DNA from: a virus
Lineage: Duplodnaviria > Caudoviricetes
Length of the DNA stretch: 64,000 nucleotides
Strand: one strand, 5' to 3'
IMG/VR virus record: IMGVR_UViG_3300024264_000029
Coordinates: 664-64,663 of that record
Part shown: piece by piece, positions 960 to 54,958 of the stretch
Position numbering within the stretch: the stretch's first letter is position 1
How the letters are laid out: every line of letters begins with the position of its first letter
Translations under genes and position numbers: made by a program
Notes under the pieces: generated by a model
What the model saw: only the letters and a program-made list of their open reading frames with translations
Told to the model about the DNA's origin: nothing
Database searches by the model: none

Positions 960-3900
960 TCAAGAAAAAGTATTATCCGCAATCGCTGCAATATCTCTTG
1001 GAGTATAATCACTATATTGTGGTCTGATAGGCCCACCTCTGGTTAAGAGGAAGATTCTCATACCATTACCAAATGGTTTAGTTGACATCATACCAACATA
1101 TGTTCTATGTGTTGCATTTGTTGTCGTATCAAGTGCATCCGCGCCATCTCTAAATGCAGTAGATGCAGTTGCAGCCGCAGCGCCCTGTTTTGCATTATGC
1201 CAATCATATGGCTGACGGAAGTTGAGCTTATCTCCATTTGAAGATACATGTTCAGAGCCAGGCGTATGGCCCGTTTCTAATGTACTTTCTTGTGCAGAGT
1301 CTAAGTCATACTTAGTTGCAGATGTTTTAATAATACCACCTTGAGTAGAACTATCAGCACCAGCCACACAAATCAAATCCATTTCTGCATCACTGTAGAT
1401 AAATCTCTGTGATGCTAGTGGAGTTGGGAAGTTAAAGATAACTGTTTTATCTTGCGTGATTGATAGCTGTTCAACAGGGTTGATACATGCAGGGCTGTCA
1501 ACCTGTGGAATAACAGCAGAAACATGATAATCCCAAGGTTTAAACACATCATTCTCACGAACAACAAATCTATAGATACCTTTAGCAACTTTATGAATGT
1601 CATTCCAGATAGAAGGAATATCTCTATCTTCTGGAACTGATACTAAGTATGTTGATTTACCTGTATCTCTTTCTTCAACATCATTATAGTTTTCATAAGA
1701 AAGTTTTACAACTGTACCATTTTCTATCGGTTGGTTAAAGGTCCATGTATCGTCGGTGAGAGAATATGCATACATTGGTTTTTCAACACCAAAATATTCT
1801 AAACTGACATTTGTAGTACCAAACTCAACATTACCATCGGCATTAATAGTATAGTTCTGTCCAAGAACAGCAGCATCTGCTTCTGAACCATCCACGAATA
1901 CTTTAAGTCTGTTGATTTCAAACAATGGATTTGATGCGGTTCCGCTTCTTCCAAAGAAGTTTGTATATTGATTATCAAATCCAGCGCCATTCCAAGCATA
2001 TTCGTATACAAATGTATCGTCTTCTGGGAATGTATCAATAACTGCCTCAATTCTCATAGCCGTACAAGTTGCCGAAGCATTCAAAGCTCCAGAAGTTTCA
2101 ACAATCGCAGCCTGTGCTGCTGTGGTTACAATATCACCAACTTTCATGCTGATTGCACCAGTACCTGGCGTAGTCCACATTGTATATACAACAGCACTAC
2201 CTACTGTGTGCTGTTCAAACCCTTTTTTCGTGGCGGCAGCTGCGCCAGCTTGGTCGGCATAGTCAGTAAGAAATCCACTTGTAGCACCCCTTTGAGAATG
2301 TTGAGGTAGTCCTACGATTTCAGCATCTGCAGATGTTGATGGCACCGGCGTAAATGAAGCTGGAGTTGCTGCAACAGCACTTATAGAATTGCCAGCAGCA
2401 TCAACTGTTGCATCCATTAAAGTGTAATGGACAAGTTGAACTCTTCTTGAAGCAACTAAAGTTTGTGCTTCTGGTGATGTTGGAGTAAACAAAGCAACAC
2501 TTGATACGATAGGAAGTTCCCTTGCGTCACCAGTTGGACTTGCTGCTGGAGCTAGTTCAGTTTTATCTAGAATTTTTACATCAGTTCTAGGATCTAAGTA
2601 TGTATCAACTCCAGTAGAAGAACGATGTCTAACTCTATATACAGATAATCCAAGTCTTGCAGGGCCCTGCATTTGGTTTCTAGCAGCATTAAAGTTTGCT
2701 AACCCACCAGTAGTGAATGAACCGTCATCACCAAACGTTGTCGTATTAGAATGAGCATCTACAGTCGCAGTTCTTGATGCAACAGTATTATCAAAAGCAG
2801 TGATTCTCTGTCCAACAGGAACAAAAGAAGTTCCATATGCTGAACCATAATTTAAAGGAAATTCAGTTCTTTGTGAGATATCTGGCCCGCCTGTGGCCGC
2901 AAAAGTCGAAATCTGGTTTGATGCTGCGATTTCTGCATAGTTTGACGAAATCACTGATGGTAATTTTGCCTGATCGTTAATAACTGTATATCCAGTAGTT
3001 GAGTTTGTTCCAAGGCTACCAGCATCGTTTAAAGGAATACCCGCTGTTGCCGATGTATTTTTATATCCTGCCCCACCGCTATATGCCAAACCACTCTTAA
3101 CTTCAATTGGATTTGAGTCTGTTAAAATAGACTGTTCTACTGGAAGGCCTGCCTTCAGCTGTCTTCCATTCACATCAAACACTTGTAATTCGTCCAATGC
3201 TTTTGATGTGATTGTAGTTTGTCCTGTTGCAGTATCAAAGTCTTCGCTCACCTCTGCAAAGAAACCAACATTATAGTTAGATGTTTCTTCTGGGCGAGTT
3301 GATGGAGAATATAAACAATGAACAGGTGATTTACCATCTTCAAATTCAATTCTACCTGATACGTTATTAACGTGTCTCTGTACAACAAACCATGCGTAGT
3401 CATCGTCTTGATCTACTGATGCTTGGTCAAACAAGAACAATCCAGTACCGTGGTCAGTACATGTCAAACGATATGCAAGTGGATAACCACTTTCAATATC
3501 ATCTGTCGTTTTACCTTGTCTACGGAACCAACCAGATTTTGCTTTGTTTGTATCGTTAGAGAAGTTATAATAGATTTCGCTAAGTTCGCCAGGCTGTCTA
3601 AACACCGCCTGCTTAATACCGTCACGACCCTGTCCTTTTGTCAAATCTCCATTATCTTTGATTTGTAATGCAGTTGCGATATTAACATAAAGATACTCAT
3701 CTCTACGGTCATAGAAGAAGCGCATTCTCCATTTTTGTGGTTTCCGAGCATCTTTAACTGGTTGAGTTAATGAAACTGTTGATGGAATTGCCACAGTTGC
3801 AGAGTTTACATCCGCTTTAGATGACAAAAGATCTGTCGCTTTTTCAGATTCAACAACAAACATATCACCAATTCTATTAAGACATTCTTTTACTGCTCTA

Positions 3901-5494: not shown

Positions 5495-8400
5495 TTATTC
5501 ACCAAGTACCGAGCCTGGAGCCTTTCCTTCAGTAACATCACTATATCTAATACTAGATCCTGTTACTTGCATGAAAATTCTCATACCGTTTCCATCTGGA
5601 AGAGTTGAAACCATACCTTCATATTTTCTGGCATCTTTTCTCCAAATATATTTTGTTTGATCGGGCCCATCATGTCCAGCATATCTAGTTGTTTGATTTG
5701 CTGCCATTGCTGGAGTGGTAGTTGGAATATATTCTCCATTACCAAAGCCACCTGCAGGCCCGTTGATGCCATCACTATCTCCGTATTTGTTGATTTCAAC
5801 ATGACCTGCTTGTGTAGAGAAGTCTGCTGAAGAAACACAAATCAAATCTAGTTCACTTTGAGGATAGTAAAATCTCTGAGATGTGATTTGAGTTGGGAAG
5901 GAGAAAACAAAATTTCTGTCTTGTGTAATTGATAACTGTTCTTGTGGGTTAATAATAGCATGAGAGTCTATTTCATGCATTGTTGCTGATACGTGATAAT
6001 CCCATGGTTTTAGAACATCCTGCTCACGAACAATAAATCTGTTAATAGTTTTAACTTCATTCATATTTGTCTCAGGGAAATTTCTATCTTCTGGTGTAGA
6101 AATTATATATGTATTTTGAGATGGATTTGAAGACGTATAATTAACTAAAGAAATAGAAAAGTTAGACATAGACCTTGGTGCATGTTTAAACACTAAAGTT
6201 TTATTCATGAAATCGTAAATATATTCTTGAGTTGTGCTATCTCCATCTGTCCATACTATATCGCCAGGCAATAAACTAGTATATGCTTGTTTATTCGAAG
6301 ATTTAGTAAGATTACTTGTCGTAATAGTATAGCTTCCTGCTGCTTTGTCCAAGAAAAATGCTCTTCCAGTTGCAGAGTTTACTACATTATTGTTAATAGT
6401 TCCTGATACAGCTTCTCCTAACAAATTAGGTACAACCGCCGCATCCTCTGCTGGAAGTTTGAAGTTAGAACCTAAAGTTTCTACTCCTGCTGCTTCGAGC
6501 ATTTCCAAGAATCTACCTGCAGTAGTTGGATCTCCATTGACTACCCAATCATCATATGTTAGAACATATGCGGCATTATCTCTTCTAACTTCCACATCAT
6601 CTAAAGTAACAACCATAGATTCCATTACCTTTGCAGCATTATTCTGTTGTGCATTATATAAAATATCTAACAGTGCAGAATCACCTTCGGTGTAGTCGGA
6701 TATAGAAATAGCATCTGGAACAGGCGGCACACCGCTTGTCTGAGAAGCTGCTTTGGCAAATGTTGAAACTCTATCTAAGAAGTTTTCTGGGAAAATTACA
6801 TTTCTAGATGGTGATGGAGCCATATCATTTTGTTGAACCCAACTCGCAATCGGAGCTGTAGTTGCAGTTTGTTCACTTCCATCAAGTGAAATCTCAACCA
6901 ACCCATCGGGTGCGGTTGTATCGCGATCAAGAGCATTTGGTGAATTGGATGCACCCATCGTGAATGCTGTTGCTCTTCTTCTTGGAAGACTATTAAATCC
7001 AGTGATTGCCAGATCAGTTGGCACTCTTGTTCTAGATGTAATCATATCGCCGCCGGTGCCGCCAGGCAGATCCATAATCTGCGCTGCGTTGGTTTGAGTA
7101 AAATCATTGTTTGTTGTCACATTTCCTGTTGGACTTGTTCCAATAAGAATTGGATCGCCTGCAGTTAGAGTGTTAAATCCTGCAGACGGATCTGCAGATG
7201 AAGTAAATACTAATTCGCCAGACACATTATTCCAACTCACCACACGGCCGCCGTTGTATACATAATTTGGAGATGATCCTGATTGCGCAGCAATAAACAT
7301 GCCGGGGATCAGTTCCAACGCGGTAACTGAAGTTGGATTTAAATATATCACATATACAGTTTGCGACCAAAGAGTTTCAGTTGCAGAACCCTGTGCGCCT
7401 GTAATACCTCTATAGAGGTCTGATTTTACATCCGTGTTATATACACCAGAACCATATCCAGATGCGCCAGCCGCATATCCAAAACTATTGAAGTCGATAG
7501 CATTTACCAATCCATTAAATATAGATTTACTCTTATCAATCCATACAGTTGGACCTTCTGTCTTGAAAATAGTTCCTAGTGAATTTGACACAGGAGCAGC
7601 AGGAGATAAATCAGCCAAATCATCAGTTGAATAGTAATTACTTATAGAACTGATATCGACAGGACGCTTTGCCGGAGAATACACACAGTGAACAGGCGCT
7701 TTCTCAGTAAATTCTGGTTGTCCTGTTGTCTGGTCAACATGTCTCTGTACAACAAACCATGCATAGTCATCATCTTGATCTACTGCACTCTGGCCATATA
7801 AAAACAACCCCATACCATGATCGGTACAAGTTATTCTATATGACATAGGATAAGTTTGCGTAATCTCATCAACAATTTGAGGTCTTCTAAACCATTGAGA
7901 TTTTGCAGTAGATATAGATAAATTTGCGCCTTTACCGATAGCCGGTTCTTTATATACATCACACAACTCTCCTGGCTCTCTATAAACTGGAGATTTGATA
8001 CCATCTCTACCCTGTGGTTGTGATATGGACATATCATCTTTCAATTGGTAATCTGTCGCAACGTTAACTTTAATTTCATTGCTATTTTCTAACCAATCAA
8101 AACGAATTCTCCATTTCTGAGGTTTTCTTGACGCTGCTGGAGATAGACTATTTAAGAAATTTAAATTAGTATCTGATAACAAATCTACGCCCTTTTCGGA
8201 TTCTACCAGAAAATTATTTGTAATTCTTCTAAGCGCTGCCTTTACATCATCTAAGTGGTTGCTTGCAGGCATTGGATGAATTAATCTAAAAGGTGTTGCA
8301 AACTCATCATTCTCTTGGAATGTTAAATTAAATACATCACCTTCTGATATTTTCGATAGTGTAGCTTTTCTTGCATCTGTAGGTAACTCTACATCACTTC

Positions 8401-48079: not shown

Positions 48080-48883
48080 CTAAGAATTTAATGTTTCATT
48101 TAAATCTGCTTCTTTACATAAAAACCCAGATGCAGTTCCGTCTGGACTATACATATCAAAATGTACTAACATATCTGCTTTACTAAATCCATTCCGATTC
48201 CATCTATACGGAAACACTATGAATTTACTATCATTTGAACGAATATGAATTTTTGAATTTGCTTGTGTTTCGCCGCGCTGTTGTCCAAAAACAAAATTAC
48301 AAGTAACATTTTCAAACTTGGCAAGTTCCCATTCTGCAATCAATATTTTATTCGAAGGATAATTTGGAAACGGACTCGAAGATGAATACTCCACATTATG
48401 ACCCCATAATGGAGCTTTTCTATCTATCCAACCAGAGGCAGTTACAGATATATTGTTTGCTCTAGTTGCCGAGATGATCGCAACAAAAGTCTGTGGCTCC
48501 GCACTTTCATTTGTGTACTTTATGATACCCTTTGGATTGGAGACATTTATATCTGCTATACTATCATCGTCAAAGTCTATTCTAAGGTCTAAGTAATCTG
48601 CTGGTGTATAGTTACAATCTATTTTTATTTTCATTGTTGTGCCGGGGTCGATAGAAAACCTTTTTGAGATTATTGTATCTCCAGTGCTCATTTGGCCAGT
48701 TCTCTCAGACATCCAATACTTATTACTTTTTTCTGCAGATTTCCTCTGCACACCAAATACATATAACTGTCCAACTCCATAGGTTCGTTCAGAAGTACCA
48801 TAAAATGGAATGTATTCCAATCCTAAGTGGTCTTTAATACCCAAGCGAATTCTATCGCTCACTAATCTTATAGTTCTAGACAT
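48080..48883 (-). CDS. Hypothetical protein (beta-rich, possibly late/virion)
   Basis: 267-aa ORF; TATAAATA at 49011..49018 lies upstream, inside the exonuclease gene. Confidence 0.6.
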   Translation of the reverse strand: MSRTIRLVSDRIRLGIKDHLGLEYIPFYGTSERTYGVGQLYVFGVQRKSAEKSNKYWMSERTGQMSTGDTIISKRFSIDPGTTMKIKIDCNYTPADYLDLRIDFDDDSIADINVSNPKGIIKYTNESAEPQTFVAIISATRANNISVTASGWIDRKAPLWGHNVEYSSSSPFPNYPSNKILIAEWELAKFENVTCNFVFGQQRGETQANSKIHIRSNDSKFIVFPYRWNRNGFSKADMLVHFDMYSPDGTASGFLCKEADLNETLNS

Positions 48884-48891
48884 TTCTTTTC

Positions 48892-49566
48892 CTAAAATTG
48901 ATTCTTATATTCTTCTACCATATTTATCAGGTCGCCGATGTGTGCATCACGCTTTGAAATAAACACTTCTGGTTCATCCTTATCTGCGATTGCCGCAATA
49001 ATTACAAGACTATTTATAGGCATTTTATATCTCTCTTCAAACATAACTGCATATCCTGCAGCTTGACGGAAATATTTTTCTAACTTACCATATTTATCAC
49101 CGACCATAGGTTGCCTAGAAGTCTTAAAGTCGATTACGGACAACTTACCATCAAAATCTGCTACACAGTCTACAGTGCCTGCTAAACCAAGATGGTCAGA
49201 GTACATAGGTTTCTCTTGTGCATAGATATTATCAACACGATTATCAAGAACAGGTTTTATCTTCAAAAAAGTCTCTATGTCAAATGGCATAGTCTTTTCT
49301 GTTTTCCATTCTAGATTATTTAGGTGGTCTTCAGCCATTTGATGGACACTAGTTCCACTTCTTGCTGCTTGTGTTGTTATTTTGTTTGCAACTTCCGCAC
49401 CAACTCTTCTTCTCCACTCTGCAATACCCTTTGCGGAAAAATGTGAGAGAACAGTTGTGATAGATGGATACTTATTTCCATCTGGTGTTTCATAAAATCT
49501 TTTGCCATTTTCTGTAACCCTTTTTAAAGTGTGGGTTGGCAATTCAACATCTACATGATTAAACAT
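48892..49566 (-). CDS. Cas4-like PD-(D/E)XK exonuclease
   Basis: R.Y.TPDG.KYPSITTVL, GT.VH...E, E..MYS...LAGTVDC and IDFKTS...Y..Q..GYA. Confidence 0.88.
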   Translation of the reverse strand: MFNHVDVELPTHTLKRVTENGKRFYETPDGNKYPSITTVLSHFSAKGIAEWRRRVGAEVANKITTQAARSGTSVHQMAEDHLNNLEWKTEKTMPFDIETFLKIKPVLDNRVDNIYAQEKPMYSDHLGLAGTVDCVADFDGKLSVIDFKTSRQPMVGDKYGKLEKYFRQAAGYAVMFEERYKMPINSLVIIAAIADKDEPEVFISKRDAHIGDLINMVEEYKNQF

Positions 49567-49623
49567 TTTTAATTCCTATTTTAAGTTAAACCTCATCCTC
49601 CAGCTCAACTCTTCCTTTCTGTC
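49546..49623. repeat. 78-bp direct repeat, copy 1
   Basis: Identical to 50012..50089. Confidence 0.95.
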
Positions 49624-49790
49624 GATCCTAGTTCAGCCCCATCATAAAGACATTCTCATAAATGATACCATAGTATTAGTAAACCCTATTTTACGTCGAT
49701 TACTAATACTATGATGTTAGTTCAAATGTCCTTATGGTGGAGCTGTGGGGTACTGCCCCCCAGTCCAGTTCGTATTCGATTTGTTTCATC
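49619..49790 (-). ncRNA. Second permuted tmRNA-like element: tRNA-like domain plus intervening hairpin, with no tag reading frame
   Basis: Minus strand reads CTGGAC-TGGGG-GGCAGTA-CCCCA-CAGCTCC-A-CCA, then a 94-nt hairpin spacer, then GGGGCTG-AACTAGGATCGACAG. G3:U70 is present. The upper boundary is approximate. Confidence 0.8.
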
Positions 49791-49804
49791 GATTACATCT
49801 TTAC

Positions 49805-49993
49805 TTAGTCCATGTCCATGACTAAGAATTCTTTGTCTAACCATTTGCGTTCTTTTTTGTTATACGCTTTCTTGATCTTTTTGCAAACTTTAGATCTTTG
49901 TGTATAACAGTAGAACTCACGCGCATCAGTTAACACATCCCACTCATCACCAGAGTTCATAGGTTTTCTTGGCAGTCTACTATTTCTCTGCAT
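49805..49993 (-). CDS. Small basic hypothetical protein
   Basis: 62 aa; GDEWDVLT..R..Y.Y......KKIKK.YNKKER; GAAGGAAG RBS. Confidence 0.7.
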   Translation of the reverse strand: MQRNSRLPRKPMNSGDEWDVLTDAREFYCYTQRSKVCKKIKKAYNKKERKWLDKEFLVMDMD

Positions 49994-50011
49994 CTAATCT
50001 TCCTTCTATGA

Positions 50012-50089
50012 AACATCTACATGATTAAACATTTTTAATTCCTATTTTAAGTTAAACCTCATCCTCCAGCTCAACTCTTCCTTTCTGTC
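50012..50089. repeat. 78-bp direct repeat, copy 2
   Basis: Identical to 49546..49623; contains an abortive start of the exonuclease (MFNHVDVS*). Confidence 0.95.
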
Positions 50090-50219
50090 CACATTTCGGG
50101 CAATACCAATTGCCCCGATCAATTTTAAAATTACTTCTCATTACTGCATAAGTGAAGTAACACTTACACTGGGCACAAGTAATATGAAAAATATATTCCA
50201 AGTGCGCCGAGAAACTCAT
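50052..50219 (-). CDS. 55-aa zinc-ribbon protein
   Basis: MSFSAHLEYIFHITCAQCKCYFTY...WYCPKCGQKGRVELEDEV, two CxxC pairs. Confidence 0.7.
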   Translation of the reverse strand: MSFSAHLEYIFHITCAQCKCYFTYAVMRSNFKIDRGNWYCPKCGQKGRVELEDEV

Positions 50220-50220
50220 A

Positions 50221-50553
50221 TCATTCTTCTTCCTTGAAACCCATTTTCAGAAGTTTTATGTATTGAAACATATCTTCTGAAAATGGATTATCAATTCCTA
50301 ATTGTCTATCCACAATTGCTTCCAAAACCATATTCATAAAGGCCATTTCCTCATGTAGGCCTTCATCTGTAGATAAAGGAAACTCATAATCATTCGTAAG
50401 TTTATCAATAACATCAATCATAACATGATGACAGATTTGTTCAGTCTCAGAACCATTGGCCAAATAATCATTGATAGAATCAAGATCAATATGTCCACTT
50501 TCTTTCTTTGCACCAAATAATTCTGTTGCATCTATTACGACATTTGTTTCCAT
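50221..50553 (-). CDS. Hypothetical acidic protein
   Basis: 110-aa ORF overlapping the phoH stop codon. Confidence 0.65.
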   Translation of the reverse strand: METNVVIDATELFGAKKESGHIDLDSINDYLANGSETEQICHHVMIDVIDKLTNDYEFPLSTDEGLHEEMAFMNMVLEAIVDRQLGIDNPFSEDMFQYIKLLKMGFKEEE

Positions 50554-51275
50554 TAAGCTATTCCTAATTCCAACTTGTTGATTATATAGTCTTTAACCAA
50601 AGCACTTCTGACAATATCATCTTGGCCAAATTCAATGAATGCGAATTGTGGCATATTTTTAATAATTTTCATAAAATCTAAAACGCCGTCTTTTTCGTCT
50701 TTCCATCTGAAATCAGACTGTCTGAAATCTCCACAGAATAATATTAAACAGTTTTCTCCCATTCTGGTTATCACTGAATCCAATTCGTGAAAATTCATAT
50801 TTTGACATTCATCTACTATGATTATACTATCGTAAAAAGTTTGTCCTCGTATAAAAGATGTTGAAGTAAAGTTAATTAAGTTATTCTTTCTTAGACTTTC
50901 ATATGCAGTGCCACATTCTAATAATTCATTAACTATTGTCTTATATGGTGCTTCATATGATTCTATTTTTTGTTTTTCGGTGCCAGGCAAAAATCCCATA
51001 TCTCTAGTAGGAACTACACTTCTTATAATTTGTATTTCTCTGTACATAGATCTGGAAGACATTAATTCTCTCAGCGCAAGATACAGCGAAACGAATGTTT
51101 TTCCTGTTCCTGCTACTCCATGTAGAAATAGGTGGTGGCCATCTTCAAAAGCGTTAAATACTTCTTGTTGAGATGGTGTTGCCGGATAAATTCTTTTTAA
51201 ATCTGAACTCCTGTTATCTAAACCGATGAATCTTTTATTTCTATTAATTTTACTTTTTTTGGATCTTTTGCTCAC
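50553..51275 (-). CDS. phoH: PhoH-family ATPase
   Basis: GVAGTGKT, RSVVP.RDMGFLPG, FIRG.TF, IIVDECQN, GD..QSD and DIVRS.LVK. Confidence 0.95.
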   Translation of the reverse strand: MSKRSKKSKINRNKRFIGLDNRSSDLKRIYPATPSQQEVFNAFEDGHHLFLHGVAGTGKTFVSLYLALRELMSSRSMYREIQIIRSVVPTRDMGFLPGTEKQKIESYEAPYKTIVNELLECGTAYESLRKNNLINFTSTSFIRGQTFYDSIIIVDECQNMNFHELDSVITRMGENCLILFCGDFRQSDFRWKDEKDGVLDFMKIIKNMPQFAFIEFGQDDIVRSALVKDYIINKLELGIA

Positions 51276-51325
51276 GCCAGACTCCTTACTCTGTTAGGGG
51301 AAAAGACATGTGAACTTATACCTAT

Positions 51326-51610
51326 TTACGAACCGACCTCTCTTGTAAACTTAGTTTCATTATATGTTTTACCCATAGATTTATCGAAGGCTTTATCCAA
51401 AACCTTTTCTTTGAACTCTAGGGGAACTTTCGTGACGCCCATGGCGACAGGATCAGCAACCATAGGAGCTTTGGTGATAATCTGTTTTAATTTTTTGGGT
51501 TGAGAGCATTGTGGACAAGAACCTTGTAGGACCTCATCTCTTTCAGAAATTTTACACGAATGTTCATATTCGTGATTGCAATTTGTACATCTAAATGTGT
51601 ATAGTGGCAT
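51326..51610 (-). CDS. FmdB-family zinc-ribbon protein
   Basis: MPLYTFRC..C.HEYE...CP.C. Confidence 0.8.
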   Translation of the reverse strand: MPLYTFRCTNCNHEYEHSCKISERDEVLQGSCPQCSQPKKLKQIITKAPMVADPVAMGVTKVPLEFKEKVLDKAFDKSMGKTYNETKFTREVGS

Positions 51611-51756
51611 TATAACCTCATTTCACTATTATAGATGTTAGGCATAAATTTATATTCAAATATACTTTTCCGTTTTTGATTACTCAATATAGAAATACAT
51701 AACGATACTAATATATATGAAACATTAATACCTAACATCCGTGTTTCACGCTAGTT

Positions 51757-51978
51757 TTAATCTTTATTAGAAACAAAAGAATACAATTCTTTAGCCTTAA
51801 CCATAAGTTCTTCCATAGAGTACATTTTATATGCATCTTGGACTTCTTCATAAGTTTTATTACCCTGCTCGTACATATCGTTCATCAACTGAACATTCAT
51901 ATGATATTGACTATCCATATAGTCTTTAGCAAGTTTAAGCATATCTGCTCTTATTTCAAATGGGTTCTTATTAGACAT
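51757..51978 (-). CDS. Conserved phage hypothetical protein
   Basis: NPFEIR.DMLKLAKDY...KAKELY.FVS; translationally coupled to the upstream gene. Confidence 0.7.
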   Translation of the reverse strand: MSNKNPFEIRADMLKLAKDYMDSQYHMNVQLMNDMYEQGNKTYEEVQDAYKMYSMEELMVKAKELYSFVSNKD

Positions 51979-52187
51979 TATTTCATTCCCTTCACAAACG
52001 CATCACCAGTTGCATTTGCAAAATCATTCATAGATTTTACTGCAATTTTTGTGAATGTTGTTTGGGCTTCAATAAAGGCCTTTAGTGGCGCAGACAAAGT
52101 TTCGTCTTTTACTAAAGTGTCAACCATTGTTTTCTTTGTAGTCTGGATATGGTCAATCCAGTAGTTTGTTGTCCAATCATTAATCAT
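51978..52187 (-). CDS. Small helical (phasin-like) protein
   Basis: ID.IQ..KK..V.T.V....L...L..FI.AQT.F.K; CAGGAG RBS. Confidence 0.55.
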   Translation of the reverse strand: MINDWTTNYWIDHIQTTKKTMVDTLVKDETLSAPLKAFIEAQTTFTKIAVKSMNDFANATGDAFVKGMK

Positions 52188-52213
52188 ATTTTTCTCCTGT
52201 GTGTTTGTGTAAA

Positions 52214-52258
52214 TTCCCCCTAACCATGGGGGGAAGCGTGCTGATTAAGGAGCAACCC
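52214..52258 (-). ncRNA. Unnamed two-hairpin RNA motif, copy A
   Basis: GGGT-TGCT-CCTTAATC-AGCA-CGC-TTCCCCC-CATGGTTA-GGGGGAA; covaries with 57202..57248. Confidence 0.75.
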
Positions 52259-52267
52259 TACAACTAT

Positions 52268-52621
52268 TTAGAAGCTGAATGATGCACCAATGCTAATATC
52301 ACCCATTCCCCACTCATCGTCTGTAGTGGTTTTTGTATATACTTCCAAGCCAGTTACTGAAGTTACTGGTAGTGTTACTTGATATTCCATACCTGTAAAT
52401 TCAATATCTTCTAGATCCATAATATTTGGGCCAACTTCTACGTTAGCAATACCAAAATTCCATGTCAAATCAGTTTCAAATGTCAAAGCATTTGTTTCTG
52501 TTTCCATGTTTCTTTCTGCTTTAAATTCACTGTCTAATGATAGACCATTTCCTAATTCAATCGCTGCGGCCGAACTTGCCAAACCAAGTGCAACAACACT
52601 TGCTGTAATAAGAGTTTTCAT
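52268..52621 (-). CDS. Small outer-membrane beta-barrel/porin-like protein
   Basis: Signal peptide MKTLITASVVALGLASSAAA, alternating beta strands, C-terminal IGASFSF (BAM-type terminal Phe). Confidence 0.65.
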   Translation of the reverse strand: MKTLITASVVALGLASSAAAIELGNGLSLDSEFKAERNMETETNALTFETDLTWNFGIANVEVGPNIMDLEDIEFTGMEYQVTLPVTSVTGLEVYTKTTTDDEWGMGDISIGASFSF

Positions 52622-52659
52622 TTCTGTATTTCCTTTGTTAAAATTCTTATAAATTAAAA

Positions 52660-52980
52660 TGTCACTACTTCTGTTGCTAGGTGAGTGACCAACCCCCTGT
52701 GGTTATGCTGCTAGAGCAAACTCAGATGGTGCAAAATTATCGTTTGCATTTGTAGTTTGTGGCTGAATAACGTAGGCCAACACGGTAATCTACTCTCATC
52801 TCTACACACCTGTCGATCCTAGTTCGCCCCCATCATAAATGCACTAACTTCGACTACCCATTCGGGCCATCTATGTTCTGCAAAACTTCCTGTTGCAGCA
52901 GGACGCAGTGCATTTATGGTGGAGGCGTTGGGTACTGCCCCCAAGTCCAGTATGTATGTTGAATCGTATCAACAATTACA
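52660..52980 (-). ncRNA. ssrA: Circularly permuted two-piece tmRNA (alphaproteobacterial type); tag ANDNFAPSEFALAA*
   Basis: The acceptor piece ends TTGGG-GGCAGTA-CCCAA-CGCCTCC-A-CCA at 52917. Intervening hairpin 52832..52916. The coding piece starts GGGGGCGAACTAGGATCGAC at 52831. Tag ORF 52747..52703. G3:U70 is present. Outer ends are approximate. Confidence 0.95.
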
Positions 52981-52986
52981 AGTATA

Positions 52987-53015
52987 CTTATAACATAGTT
53001 TTCCATGTGCGTCAA
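52987..53015 (-). promoter_or_regulatory. Sigma70-type promoter of the tmRNA
   Basis: TTGACG-N17-TATAAG just upstream of the acceptor piece. Confidence 0.75.
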
Positions 53016-53051
53016 TAGTTTTTCAACTTTTTAATACACATGGTATTTTTA

Positions 53052-53522
53052 TCACACTATCAGTTCGAAGTGTGGGCCATCAATAAATGGTCTGCGATTT
53101 TGAGAACGGCGCAAATCAATATATGCATTCATTGCATCTTCTGCTGTACCCTCATAAGAACGGATATCACCTTCTGACCATGCTGCTCCCCACTTGACTG
53201 CAACACCCTTTTCTTCTGCTGCCTGCTTGAATGCATCGCAGATGTTATCGTATACATTAATTTCCCACACAACATCTGATCCATCGTAAGCTACGACATC
53301 AACTGCATGTGAATATCCACTATCTTGAATAAGGTGTTTTGACTTCATAGTTTGAGAACGTCCAGATGCTACTAATTTTTCTTGCTCTTCGACCGTCCGA
53401 ACACCATATGTGACTCCGAAATCAACCGAAGTCAATTCGATAGCACGTTCTACGACTGCGACCATATCTGGATGGACACCTTCTAATTTAACCTTTGATC
53501 TATTTGATAATTTAAATGCCAT
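53052..53522 (-). CDS. Peptidase M15 family endolysin (L-Ala-D-Glu peptidase-like)
   Basis: LSNRS..KLEGVHPD, DF.V..GVRT.EEQ, SKHL..HAVD, WG..W and DGPHFEL. Confidence 0.9.
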   Translation of the reverse strand: MAFKLSNRSKVKLEGVHPDMVAVVERAIELTSVDFGVTYGVRTVEEQEKLVASGRSQTMKSKHLIQDSGYSHAVDVVAYDGSDVVWEINVYDNICDAFKQAAEEKGVAVKWGAAWSEGDIRSYEGTAEDAMNAYIDLRRSQNRRPFIDGPHFELIV

Positions 53523-54151: not shown

Positions 54152-54958
54152 CTATAAATAATTATCTAAACTATTTTCTGCTTTATATCTTGCGATATTG
54201 TTTTTATTGTGTTCCACATCCTTACTATGTATAAAAGGCATTTCAGAACTAATAGTATAACTAGTTTCGCCTGGGCGTTTGATCTTCCATTCTAGATCGG
54301 CATCTTTGGGATAATTCATATCCCATTCACAAGTGGAATTTCTATTCATATACTTTCTATCTTTTTTGGTTATTGGATAGATATACCTAAATTGTTTTCC
54401 CCATACTCTAGAAAAACCCAACTCGCCCATTTTTTCATCATTTGGCCTTGGCCCATACTTCAAATCATCACGGCCCATTTCCTTTTTCATTTTTCTTTGT
54501 ATAGTTCTGAAATGAACTTTTTCGCCCTTATCAGTGACATATACATCGCTCCATATAAATCCCCCATGTAAAAAATTAGCAGATTGATAGACATAGCCAG
54601 GCTTGCCTACAATACCATCTGCCCAAGTATACAGAAATTTTATATCTGGAGTATTATCTCTCATCCATTTTACTGTTTGAGACAACATCTGACTCTCTGA
54701 ATTTCTTGGCATAGATTCGTCCATACACATTTTGCCAATTTCAAAATAATCTTTTGTAGTCAATTCTGGAAACATTTTCTTAATTGTTCCCATAGGATTT
54801 GTTCCCCATCCTAATGTCAGCACACCAACTAATACATCTTTATCAAAAAACCCAAGATAGTGTTTAGTCAATCTAGGCATAACAGCAGAATAATGCCTCT
54901 CTGCAACAAACAGAGAGGCTGTATTCTTATGAAGTTTTTTGATATTGAAAGTTACCAT
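54152..54958 (-). CDS. Mom-like (GNAT-fold) DNA modification protein
   Basis: A..FV...HYS, LVGV.TLG, FEI.KM......RN.ES..LS and LYTWAD...G..G.VYQSANF. Confidence 0.7.
   Translation of the reverse strand: MVTFNIKKLHKNTASLFVAERHYSAVMPRLTKHYLGFFDKDVLVGVLTLGWGTNPMGTIKKMFPELTTKDYFEIGKMCMDESMPRNSESQMLSQTVKWMRDNTPDIKFLYTWADGIVGKPGYVYQSANFLHGGFIWSDVYVTDKGEKVHFRTIQRKMKKEMGRDDLKYGPRPNDEKMGELGFSRVWGKQFRYIYPITKKDRKYMNRNSTCEWDMNYPKDADLEWKIKRPGETSYTISSEMPFIHSKDVEHNKNNIARYKAENSLDNYL

Follow-up and report, generated by a model that had tools for sequence, protein, structure and literature searches.

Background

Transfer-messenger RNA (tmRNA) genes can be permuted, so that the RNA consists of two pieces, and the segment that intervenes between the pieces is excised on maturation. 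According to PMC9004378, two-piece tmRNA genes are found in marine myophages such as Melnitz and the pelagimyophages; these genes are of the alphaproteobacterial type (Rfam models RF01849, alpha_tmRNA, and RF04321, tmRNA_permuted). Here we describe a fragment of such a gene, a tRNA-like domain (TLD) devoid of a tag, in the genome of a T4-like marine phage that also carries a complete permuted tmRNA gene 3.2 kb away. The DNA analysed, hereinafter the window, is a stretch of 64,000 nt, to which all coordinates refer, of the 64.7-kb IMG/VR virus record IMGVR_UViG_3300024264_000029, the record being estimated as ~32% complete. The fragment was apparently brought in, together with a small open reading frame (ORF62), by microhomology-mediated insertion from another phage.

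With the permuted tmRNA genes of marine myophages, the fragment shares the order of acceptor piece, intervening segment and 5' acceptor strand, as well as the T-loop, the G3:U70 pair, the ACCA end and the D-loop analogue, and its stems are letter for letter those of many of these genes. In contrast to them, it has no 3' strand of helix 2, no pseudoknots, no resume codon and no tag frame, and because both helix 2 and the tag are missing, it cannot act as a tmRNA. Duplicate tmRNA calls that lack one end of the gene and accompany a complete copy are known, and the fragment is similar to these in that respect; however, the known cases are bacterial or result from the integration of genomic islands, whereas here a permuted gene has been cut mid-gene in a lytic-type phage, with microhomology at the joints and a target duplication of 78 nt. 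A phage-borne TLD without a tag frame also has a precedent in the TLD-only tmRNA of mycobacteriophage DS6A. The DS6A molecule, however, is a one-piece, stand-alone RNA, and its phage is not listed with a full tmRNA in the accessible portions of PMC4131195 and PMC11915505, whereas the fragment is two-piece and apparently promoterless, abuts the leader of an mRNA and coexists with a complete tmRNA.

The mode of acquisition has parallels as well. The insertion and replacement of genes through recombination at short homologies during co-infection, described for T4-type phages by Arbiol et al. 2010 (PMC2839356), and the microhomology-mediated break-induced replication (MMBIR) model (PMC2621351), resemble the present case in that a small accessory gene comes to lie between conserved genes and in that the states with and without the insert both occur in close relatives. 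The units described in PMC2839356 are promoter-stem-loop cassettes, whereas the present locus displays microhomologies of 5 and 8 nt, staggered joints and a duplication of 78 nt. In the literature searched, which did not extend to supplementary tables such as Table S1 of PMC9004378, no published case came to light in which a phage with a complete tmRNA also carries a truncated permuted one.

Results and discussion

A tRNA-like domain without a tag

Comparison of the window with the Rfam covariance models yielded a second tmRNA-family match at 49619-49769/49768 on the minus strand, with a score of 62.5 bits (E 8.8e-15, model positions 85-169 of 355) for RF01849 and 61.6 bits (model positions 30-108 of 213) for RF04321, above the gathering cut-offs of both models (50 and 47 bits, respectively). 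The match encompasses the T-arm, the 3' acceptor strand, the CCA, the intervening segment, the 5' acceptor strand, the D-loop analogue and the first three pairs of helix 2, that is, the tRNA-like domain only. A preliminary description of this DNA, made from the letters alone, had proposed a second tmRNA tRNA-like domain with the permuted layout of the resident gene, and the two models agree with it; ARAGORN, the other program that had been suggested as a check, did not call the fragment and reported only the complete tmRNA (52612-53010, tag ANDNFAPSEFALAA).

The structural details given at that time were all borne out by reading both genes with regular expressions. The acceptor stem is GGGGCUG/CAGCUCC in the fragment versus GGGGGCG/CGCCUCC in the resident gene, and the T-stem is UGGGG/CCCCA versus UUGGG/CCCAA, so that three base pairs, two in the acceptor stem and one in the T-stem, differ on both sides, whereas the T-loop GGCAGUA, the ACCA, AACUAGGAUCGAC, AACUAGGAUCGACAG and G3:U70 are common to the two. 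The intervening segment comprises 94 nt, versus 85 nt in the resident gene, and does form a long hairpin: the inverted repeat CATAGTATTAGTAA/TTACTAATACTATG is present (0 of 100 shuffles reach two matches), and the predicted fold of 49600-49805 (-) has an energy of -71 kcal/mol (z = -7.7).

Helix 2, which joins the two pieces, is absent, both covariance-model alignments ending after three pairs (CUG/CAG). The mRNA-like domain, with the resume codon, the tag frame ending in ..AA-stop and the pseudoknots, is absent as well, as judged by the lack of an ARAGORN call and by the tag-frame regular expression, which came back empty in the identical copy on contig L166. Instead, GACAG is followed by the tail of the upstream gene ORF55 (55 aa) and by the leader of an exonuclease gene, the ATG of which (49566) is 52 nt away. 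The preliminary description had reported this distance, the lack of a tag frame and the end of the helix-2 pairing at CAG/CUG correctly, as the sequence and the covariance alignments attest. It had also placed the element at 49619-49790. The 3' limit holds, in that the homology to tmRNA ends at 49619, with GACAG (49623->49619) common to the recipient sequence; on the 5' side, however, the homology continues to about 49796-49805, through the 5' strand of helix 2 and beyond the Rfam range, and a 78-nt repeat that brackets the insert had been missed.

Two side lines of this analysis were abandoned. The sequence past GACAG could be taken to encode a tag, whether a giant one that comprises the exonuclease gene or a short one from the in-frame tail of ORF55 (QKGRVELEDEV*), but helix 2, a pseudoknot and a resume-codon context are lacking, and the reading was rejected because these letters are explained as duplicated recipient sequence. 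A comparison of the two pieces by RNAcofold (ddG -7.4 kcal/mol for the fragment versus -4.9 kcal/mol for the resident gene) was dropped as uninformative on stability because, even with the resident pieces, the minimum-energy dimer failed to recover the consensus form of helix 2.

An empty site, a duplicated target and donor-like phages

Among the 59 fetched viral loci that encode relatives of the exonuclease, nine encode a protein with 99-100% identity. In six of these nine (L003, L005, L006, L007, L008 and L019), the site is free of the insert and consists of ORF55, one copy of the 78-nt sequence and the exonuclease gene, with neither ORF62 nor a piece of tmRNA. A seventh, L004 (the same contig as L166), begins within the fragment and continues, at 100% identity, across the repeat and into the exonuclease gene, and the remaining two (L009 and L021) end within the exonuclease gene and are uninformative on the insert, which is, accordingly, absent from six of the seven informative close relatives. 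What these six relatives carry at this locus is an empty site and not a full, tag-bearing tmRNA. The distance from the resident tmRNA to the start of the exonuclease gene is 2999 nt in L005 versus 3464 nt in the window, and the difference of 465-466 nt matches the 466-nt unit formed by the repeat and the insert.

In the window, the 388-bp insert is bracketed by the two copies of an exact direct repeat of 78 nt (100% identity, spaced 466 nt start to start), and the order on the minus strand is ORF55, the rest of repeat copy 2, ORF62, the tmRNA acceptor piece, the intervening segment, the 22-nt start of the coding piece, repeat copy 1 and the exonuclease gene (Table 1). The exonuclease codons of copy 2 run into TCATAG and so make up an 8-codon mini-ORF, MFNHVDVS*, at 50032->50006. 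When donor-like, recipient-like and product sequences are set side by side, both joints fall into short stretches of identity. At the upstream joint, recipient ...AATCATGTAGATGTTGAATTG... and donor ...CCCTGTTTAGATGTTTCATAG... share TAGATGTT (8 nt; exonuclease codons 5-7), and at the downstream joint, donor ...GGATCGACAGGCGGG... and recipient ...AAATGTGGACAGAAAGG... share GACAG (5 nt); the 78-nt repeat starts with GACAG and ends with TAGATGTT. The empty site, the donor-like sequence, the short shared junctions and the duplicated target are all observed, as in a microhomology-mediated insertion with target duplication, and the location of both junctions in microhomologies suggests that the truncation of the tmRNA at GACAG resulted from illegitimate recombination.

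The donor-like arrangement was detected by a search with ORF62. In L062 and L063, which come from a different type of phage, ORF62 (95.8% and 97.9% nucleotide identity, respectively) is immediately followed by a tmRNA, the acceptor piece of which matches the fragment. Between ORF62 of the window and that of L062, there are seven synonymous and no non-synonymous codon differences. The tmRNA of L062 is complete (RF04321, 116.5 bits, model positions 1-213, tag ANDNFAPSELRLAA), and the L063 contig, which stops at the CCA, carries the CAGCUCC strand of the fragment. Other complete genes are closer in the individual parts: the acceptor piece is identical to that of L112 in 61 of 62 positions (57 of 62 for L062), and the intervening segment is identical to that of L324 in 91 of 94, the two tmRNAs scoring 123.1 bits (tag ANDNFAPSEFALAA) and 121.5 bits, respectively, with RF04321. 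In L112, a TTGACA-17-TATAAT promoter, read by eye, occupies the position where the fragment has the end of ORF62. The arrangement in L062 and L063 suggests that ORF62 moved in together with the tmRNA fragment.

The parental type is common among phages. The exact 27-mer comprising the T-arm and the acceptor strand is present in 46 viral contigs, and the 5' 20-mer is present in at least 119 stretches and, in exact form, in 127 of the fetched viral loci. ARAGORN calls a tmRNA in 87 of these 127 loci, 31 more contain a tag frame of the form AN..-...AA-stop according to a regular expression, and four more (L119, L133, L136 and L181) were recognized by reading; of the rest, four are too near a contig end to judge and one, L166, is shortened and identical to the window. 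Hence 122 of the 123 assessable contigs continue into a tag-bearing tmRNA, and the exception is the allele of the window itself. The stem type of the fragment was also found in 120 of the 135 loci scored, but this count is true by construction because sequences of the fragment itself served to retrieve these loci; the informative measure among them is how many continue into the full gene. As a marker of the host or donor, the 20-mer was tried and discarded, since its 113 matches in bacterial genomes, mostly Sphingorhabdus and other Sphingomonadales among the 80 listed, identify neither. The 29-mer that spans the junction occurs in one IMG/VR contig beyond the window's own record and in none of the contigs of the JGI metagenome collection, the only such collection covered.

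These matches alter the interpretation of the compensatory changes between the fragment and the resident gene, which the preliminary description had emphasized. The changes are real, at three base pairs, but they do not speak for selection on this copy: because the same stems are found letter for letter in many complete, tag-bearing phage tmRNAs, they reflect selection in the parent lineage. The compensatory differences and the intact stems are thus evidently inherited from a functional parent lineage.

Table 1. Features of the insert, its surroundings and the resident tmRNA gene in the window
Feature	Position	Strand	Content or basis
388-bp foreign insert	49624..50011	-	donor gene end (TCATAG), intergenic spacer, ORF62, tmRNA 5' part
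Repeat copy 1	49546..49623		orphan ORF55 tail, ribosome-binding site, first 7 codons of intact exonuclease gene
Repeat copy 2	50012..50089		true ORF55 3' end (last 38 nt), duplicated exonuclease leader and first 7 codons
First 22 nt of tmRNA coding piece	49619..49640	-	5' acceptor strand GGGGCUG (49640->49634), D-loop analogue AACUAGGAUCGAC, AG completing GACAG
94-nt intervening segment, long hairpin	49641..49734	-	inverted repeat and fold
tmRNA acceptor piece	49735..49796	-	orphaned helix-2 5' strand (49796->49766), T-arm (49762->49746), CAGCUCC (49745->49739), ACCA (49738->49735)
ORF62, 62-aa basic protein with its own AAGGAAG ribosome-binding site	49805..49993	-	open reading frame
PD-(D/E)XK exonuclease gene, 224 aa, intact, directly downstream of the fragment	48892..49566	-	PF12705; phrog_298, 2.6e-67
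ORF55, small Cys-rich protein, intact	50052..50219	-	directly upstream of exonuclease in insert-free relatives
Resident complete permuted (two-piece) tmRNA gene, alphaproteobacterial-type	52660..53030	-	RF01849 126.9 bits, model 1-355

A proposed origin

Whereas the relationships among donor, recipient and product are seen directly in the sequences, the way in which they were joined we infer from the letters at the joints. A more distant marine phage that co-infected the same cell would have supplied the 5' portion of its permuted tmRNA gene together with ORF62, and two microhomology-mediated template switches or end-joining events would have placed this segment between ORF55 and the exonuclease gene. 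One of the joints would have formed at TAGATGTT and the other at GACAG, the start of helix 2 in the tmRNA, letters that coincidentally are found also in the 3' end of ORF55. Since the recipient sequence resumes 78 nt upstream of the point where it was left, these 78 nt are duplicated and both flanking genes remain whole. Helix 2, the pseudoknots, the resume codon and the tag frame would have been left behind, and their loss makes this copy a gene remnant, or pseudogene. Apparently without a promoter of its own, the fragment would be transcribed as an extension of the ORF55/ORF62 transcript, and RNase P might then, incidentally, cleave the tRNA-like fold at 49640.

One of the readings offered in the preliminary description was that recombination had cut a second tmRNA and left a remnant, and the empty site in six relatives, the donor-like arrangement, the microhomology joints and the 78-nt duplication provide it with substance. 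If this scenario is correct, the locus is an unusually clean natural record of the exchange of small genes among T4-like marine phages, with the empty site, the donor-like arrangement and the product all represented in environmental contigs. It also calls for caution in annotation, given that a truncated pseudogene can exceed the cut-off of a covariance model and display intact stems and compensatory differences that it has inherited.

Remnant or functional element

We consider it highly probable that the fragment is a recombination remnant without a selected function, and it fits the description of a tmRNA pseudogene. This assessment is supported by the fact that the cut was set by a 5-nt coincidence, by the presence of a single allele and by the lack of a promoter-like site, no sigma-70-like site being found on the minus strand in 49770-50260. 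There is no sign of retention in relatives or of repeated origin either, the fragment being absent from six of seven informative relatives and found in one of 123 assessable loci, as the same allele; in conservation, as in context, it thus differs from the DS6A form, which it resembles in content. If anything in the insert is under selection, ORF62 is a more likely candidate than the rest.

Several observations point in the opposite direction. The tRNA-like domain is undamaged, with all seven acceptor-stem pairs including G3:U70, the A73 and CCA, all five pairs of the T-arm, and a D-loop analogue that is the same as in many functional genes, and it could, in principle, still be processed, charged and bound by SmpB. 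The intactness would be explained by recency, but so it would be, equally well, by selection, there being a single allele to judge from. That allele is not a one-off, given that a second IMG/VR contig carries it and that it recurs in the DNA runs of three studies (2016, 2018 and 2020), which implies that it is at least tolerated. The missing promoter is a weak argument because the donor-type tmRNA of L062 has no obvious promoter either. Finally, DS6A shows that a TLD-only tmRNA can exist in a phage, and inhibition of tmRNA by a molecule of this type is reported (PMC4131195 and PMC11915505).

Among the alternatives, the one that survives best, although we regard it as unlikely, is that the fragment is an RNA-processing element of the tRNA punctuation kind, whereby RNase P would cleave at 49640 and the 3' end would be trimmed to the CCA at 49735, so as to part the ORF62 and exonuclease messages or define stable ends for them. 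The intact tRNA-like fold is compatible with such a role, and so are the surroundings of ORF62 homologues, which often are located beside or inside tRNA-like genes, namely, in the intervening segments of tmRNAs (L065-L068 and L183) or between tRNA-Glu and tRNA-Ser (L064). The ORF62 family includes at least 326 tblastn relatives in IMG/VR; in the best 80 of these loci (L325-L404), in which the neighbourhood was scored with ARAGORN, 17 have a tRNA or tmRNA on the same strand within 150 nt. However, in 12 of these 17 loci the nearest such gene is a tRNA located 17-120 nt upstream of the reading frame (26-47 nt in ten), whereas here the tRNA-like domain is downstream, and at least 56 of the best 80 have no tRNA or tmRNA within 1.5 kb, nor do L069-L072 have any according to ARAGORN or Rfam. 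Simple adjacency in the donor accounts for the co-transfer of ORF62 and the tmRNA piece, and the sole contig from an RNA library, a 709-nt contig from run X15 that covers the flanks, joins 49545 to 50012 and so represents the insert-free form. A broader version, in which ORF62 and the tag-less domain constitute a working cassette, such that tRNA-processing enzymes would cut the transcript into an ORF62 message and an exonuclease message with an acceptor-strand 5' end while the alanine-chargeable domain binds host SmpB, is doubtful to the same degree. Were it to hold, the genes of the ORF62 family would be passengers that ride tRNA-like processing sites, including the excised intervening segments of permuted tmRNAs.

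We find it rather improbable that the fragment is a tag-less decoy, that is, an alanylated two-piece domain that, by analogy with the proposal made for DS6A, would bind SmpB or EF-Tu and damp trans-translation in the host. The identity elements (G3:U70, A73, CCA, T-loop and D-loop analogue) are all there, there is the precedent of DS6A, and Mao et al. 2009 reportedly showed inhibition, as cited in PMC4131195 and PMC11915505. No SmpB gene was found in the 64.6-kb record (~32% complete), so the effect of a decoy would fall on the host SmpB. On the other hand, the phage has a complete tmRNA 3.2 kb away, with which the decoy would compete; with helix 2 gone, no more than 7 + 3 base pairs would connect the two pieces; a single allele was found, which is missing in most of the informative close relatives; and the cut was made at a 5-nt microhomology and not at a gene boundary. 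If the minority view turned out to be true, the fragment would be a two-piece addition to the phage TLD-only RNAs, of which one is known, and it would suggest that ribosome rescue in the host is tuned by phages.

An assembly chimera, in which the insert is wrongly linked to the exonuclease locus, e.g. by a wrong path of the assembler through the 78-nt repeat, is very improbable, and this worry, raised in the preliminary description, is largely answered. The DNA runs of three studies contain 0.90-0.96 of the sampled words of this stretch, and the Logan unitigs of runs X1-X3 tile the whole region. Unitigs are expected to break at the repeat; among those listed, unitigs of the insert extend 30 nt into it, at both junctions in X1 and X2 and at the left one in X3, which is one nucleotide short of the 31 nt adopted as the criterion for bridging, so that the order of the segments is unproven by the unitigs alone and rests on two IMG/VR contigs. 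The second of these contigs, from another sample (L004, identical to L166), connects the insert, across the repeat, with the exonuclease gene at 100% identity. Furthermore, the unitig depth of the insert is near that of the flanks in all three studies (11.9 versus 8.6-10.0 in X1, 92.2 versus 86.7-88.4 in X2 and 36.8 versus 25.9-28.8 in X3), the depth of the repeat is approximately the sum of the two, and the junctions lie in microhomologies of donor and recipient, which a chimera would not require. In X3, loose ends match the upstream gene of the L062 type and a complete tmRNA of the L324 type, which implies that donor-like phages were present in the same water.

The weakest alternative, a relic of an attachment site formed by integrase-mediated integration and imprecise excision with a piece of host ssrA, is barely credible. 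Integration into tmRNA genes is common, and prophages are known to contain pieces of ssrA (PMC9004378 and PMC4131195). However, the present fragment represents the 5' part of the gene instead of a host ssrA 3' end, and it is closest to the tmRNA genes of phages. It is flanked on either side by phage sequence, a segment of which is duplicated, and no tyrosine integrase (PF00589) was found in the record, itself ~32% complete.

Genomic setting

The genes near the fragment, all on the minus strand, encode a gp32-type single-stranded DNA-binding protein, a helicase loader, PhoH, an endolysin and a Mom-like protein, and ARAGORN detects a cluster of five tRNA genes in the neighbourhood. Two genes upstream of the pair formed by the endolysin gene and the tmRNA is the gene for the Mom-like DNA modification protein (54152-54958 (-); phrog_1384, 1e-38). 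The resident tmRNA is closely followed downstream, at 52268-52621 (-), by a gene for a 117-aa protein with a signal-peptide-like N-terminus and no Pfam match; in Melnitz, curli-pore genes are located near ssrA (PMC9004378). A glutamine riboswitch, as reported near the tmRNA of Melnitz, was not detected by Rfam at E <= 1 in 48800-53300. A nucleotide search of named phage records with 48500-53500 returned short matches only (endolysin, PhoH and, at 76.6%, the SsrA of Melnitz) and no named close relative.

The ORF62 family and unusual phage tmRNAs

ORF62 has no Pfam or PHROG match; its relatives fall into five unnamed clusters, and Atlas returns only viral clusters of hypothetical proteins. In L064, the ORF62 homologue overlaps the 5' end of the tRNA-Ser gene. 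Homologues of 61 and 48 aa are nested inside the intervening segments of complete tmRNAs in L065-L068 (about 2885-3378) and L183 (1317-1460), where the reading frames terminate on the tmRNA's own 5' acceptor strand (...MMGLN-stop). Other small reading frames occupy the same kind of location, namely, an unrelated 47-aa one in L073 and L095, and a conserved one of 27-29 aa (MIKWI..SY..W.AKKEA..PKYL) in five loci (L082, L088, L094, L097 and L103). Conceivably, the excised intervening segment of a tmRNA might double as a small mRNA. A tRNA-Ala gene inside one tmRNA intervening segment is described in PMC11915505, whereas in the literature searched, including the accessible portion of that article, we found no mention of protein-coding reading frames in intervening segments. 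The nested small reading frames and the clustering of the ORF62 family with tRNA and tmRNA genes are, perhaps, of more lasting interest than the fragment itself.

Several other loci deviate from the common tmRNA organization. L190 contains, at ~2599, a tmRNA coding piece with the tag frame ANENFAPSGFALAA, without an acceptor piece in the 8.2-kb locus and without an Rfam match, and directly upstream of it is a reverse-strand gene for a 200-aa protein; this may be the opposite kind of tmRNA remnant. Upstream of the complete tmRNA of L324 there is, directly adjacent at 7410-7526 (-), a lysine-rich reading frame of 39 aa, in which the stretch ..SKAWKKKLKQLSNKKIRQKINKEL resembles, by eye only, the basic C-terminal half of ORF62. 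Very compact permuted tmRNAs are found in L119, L133, L136 and L198, with the tag frame ~27 nt past GAUCGAC versus 59-69 nt in the other scored loci, and the compact tmRNA of L119 passes both Rfam models. Some phage tmRNAs encode long tags, of 20-25 residues versus the usual 9-14, as in L150 and in four loci with ANDNFKPELSFDFDGVLEAA.

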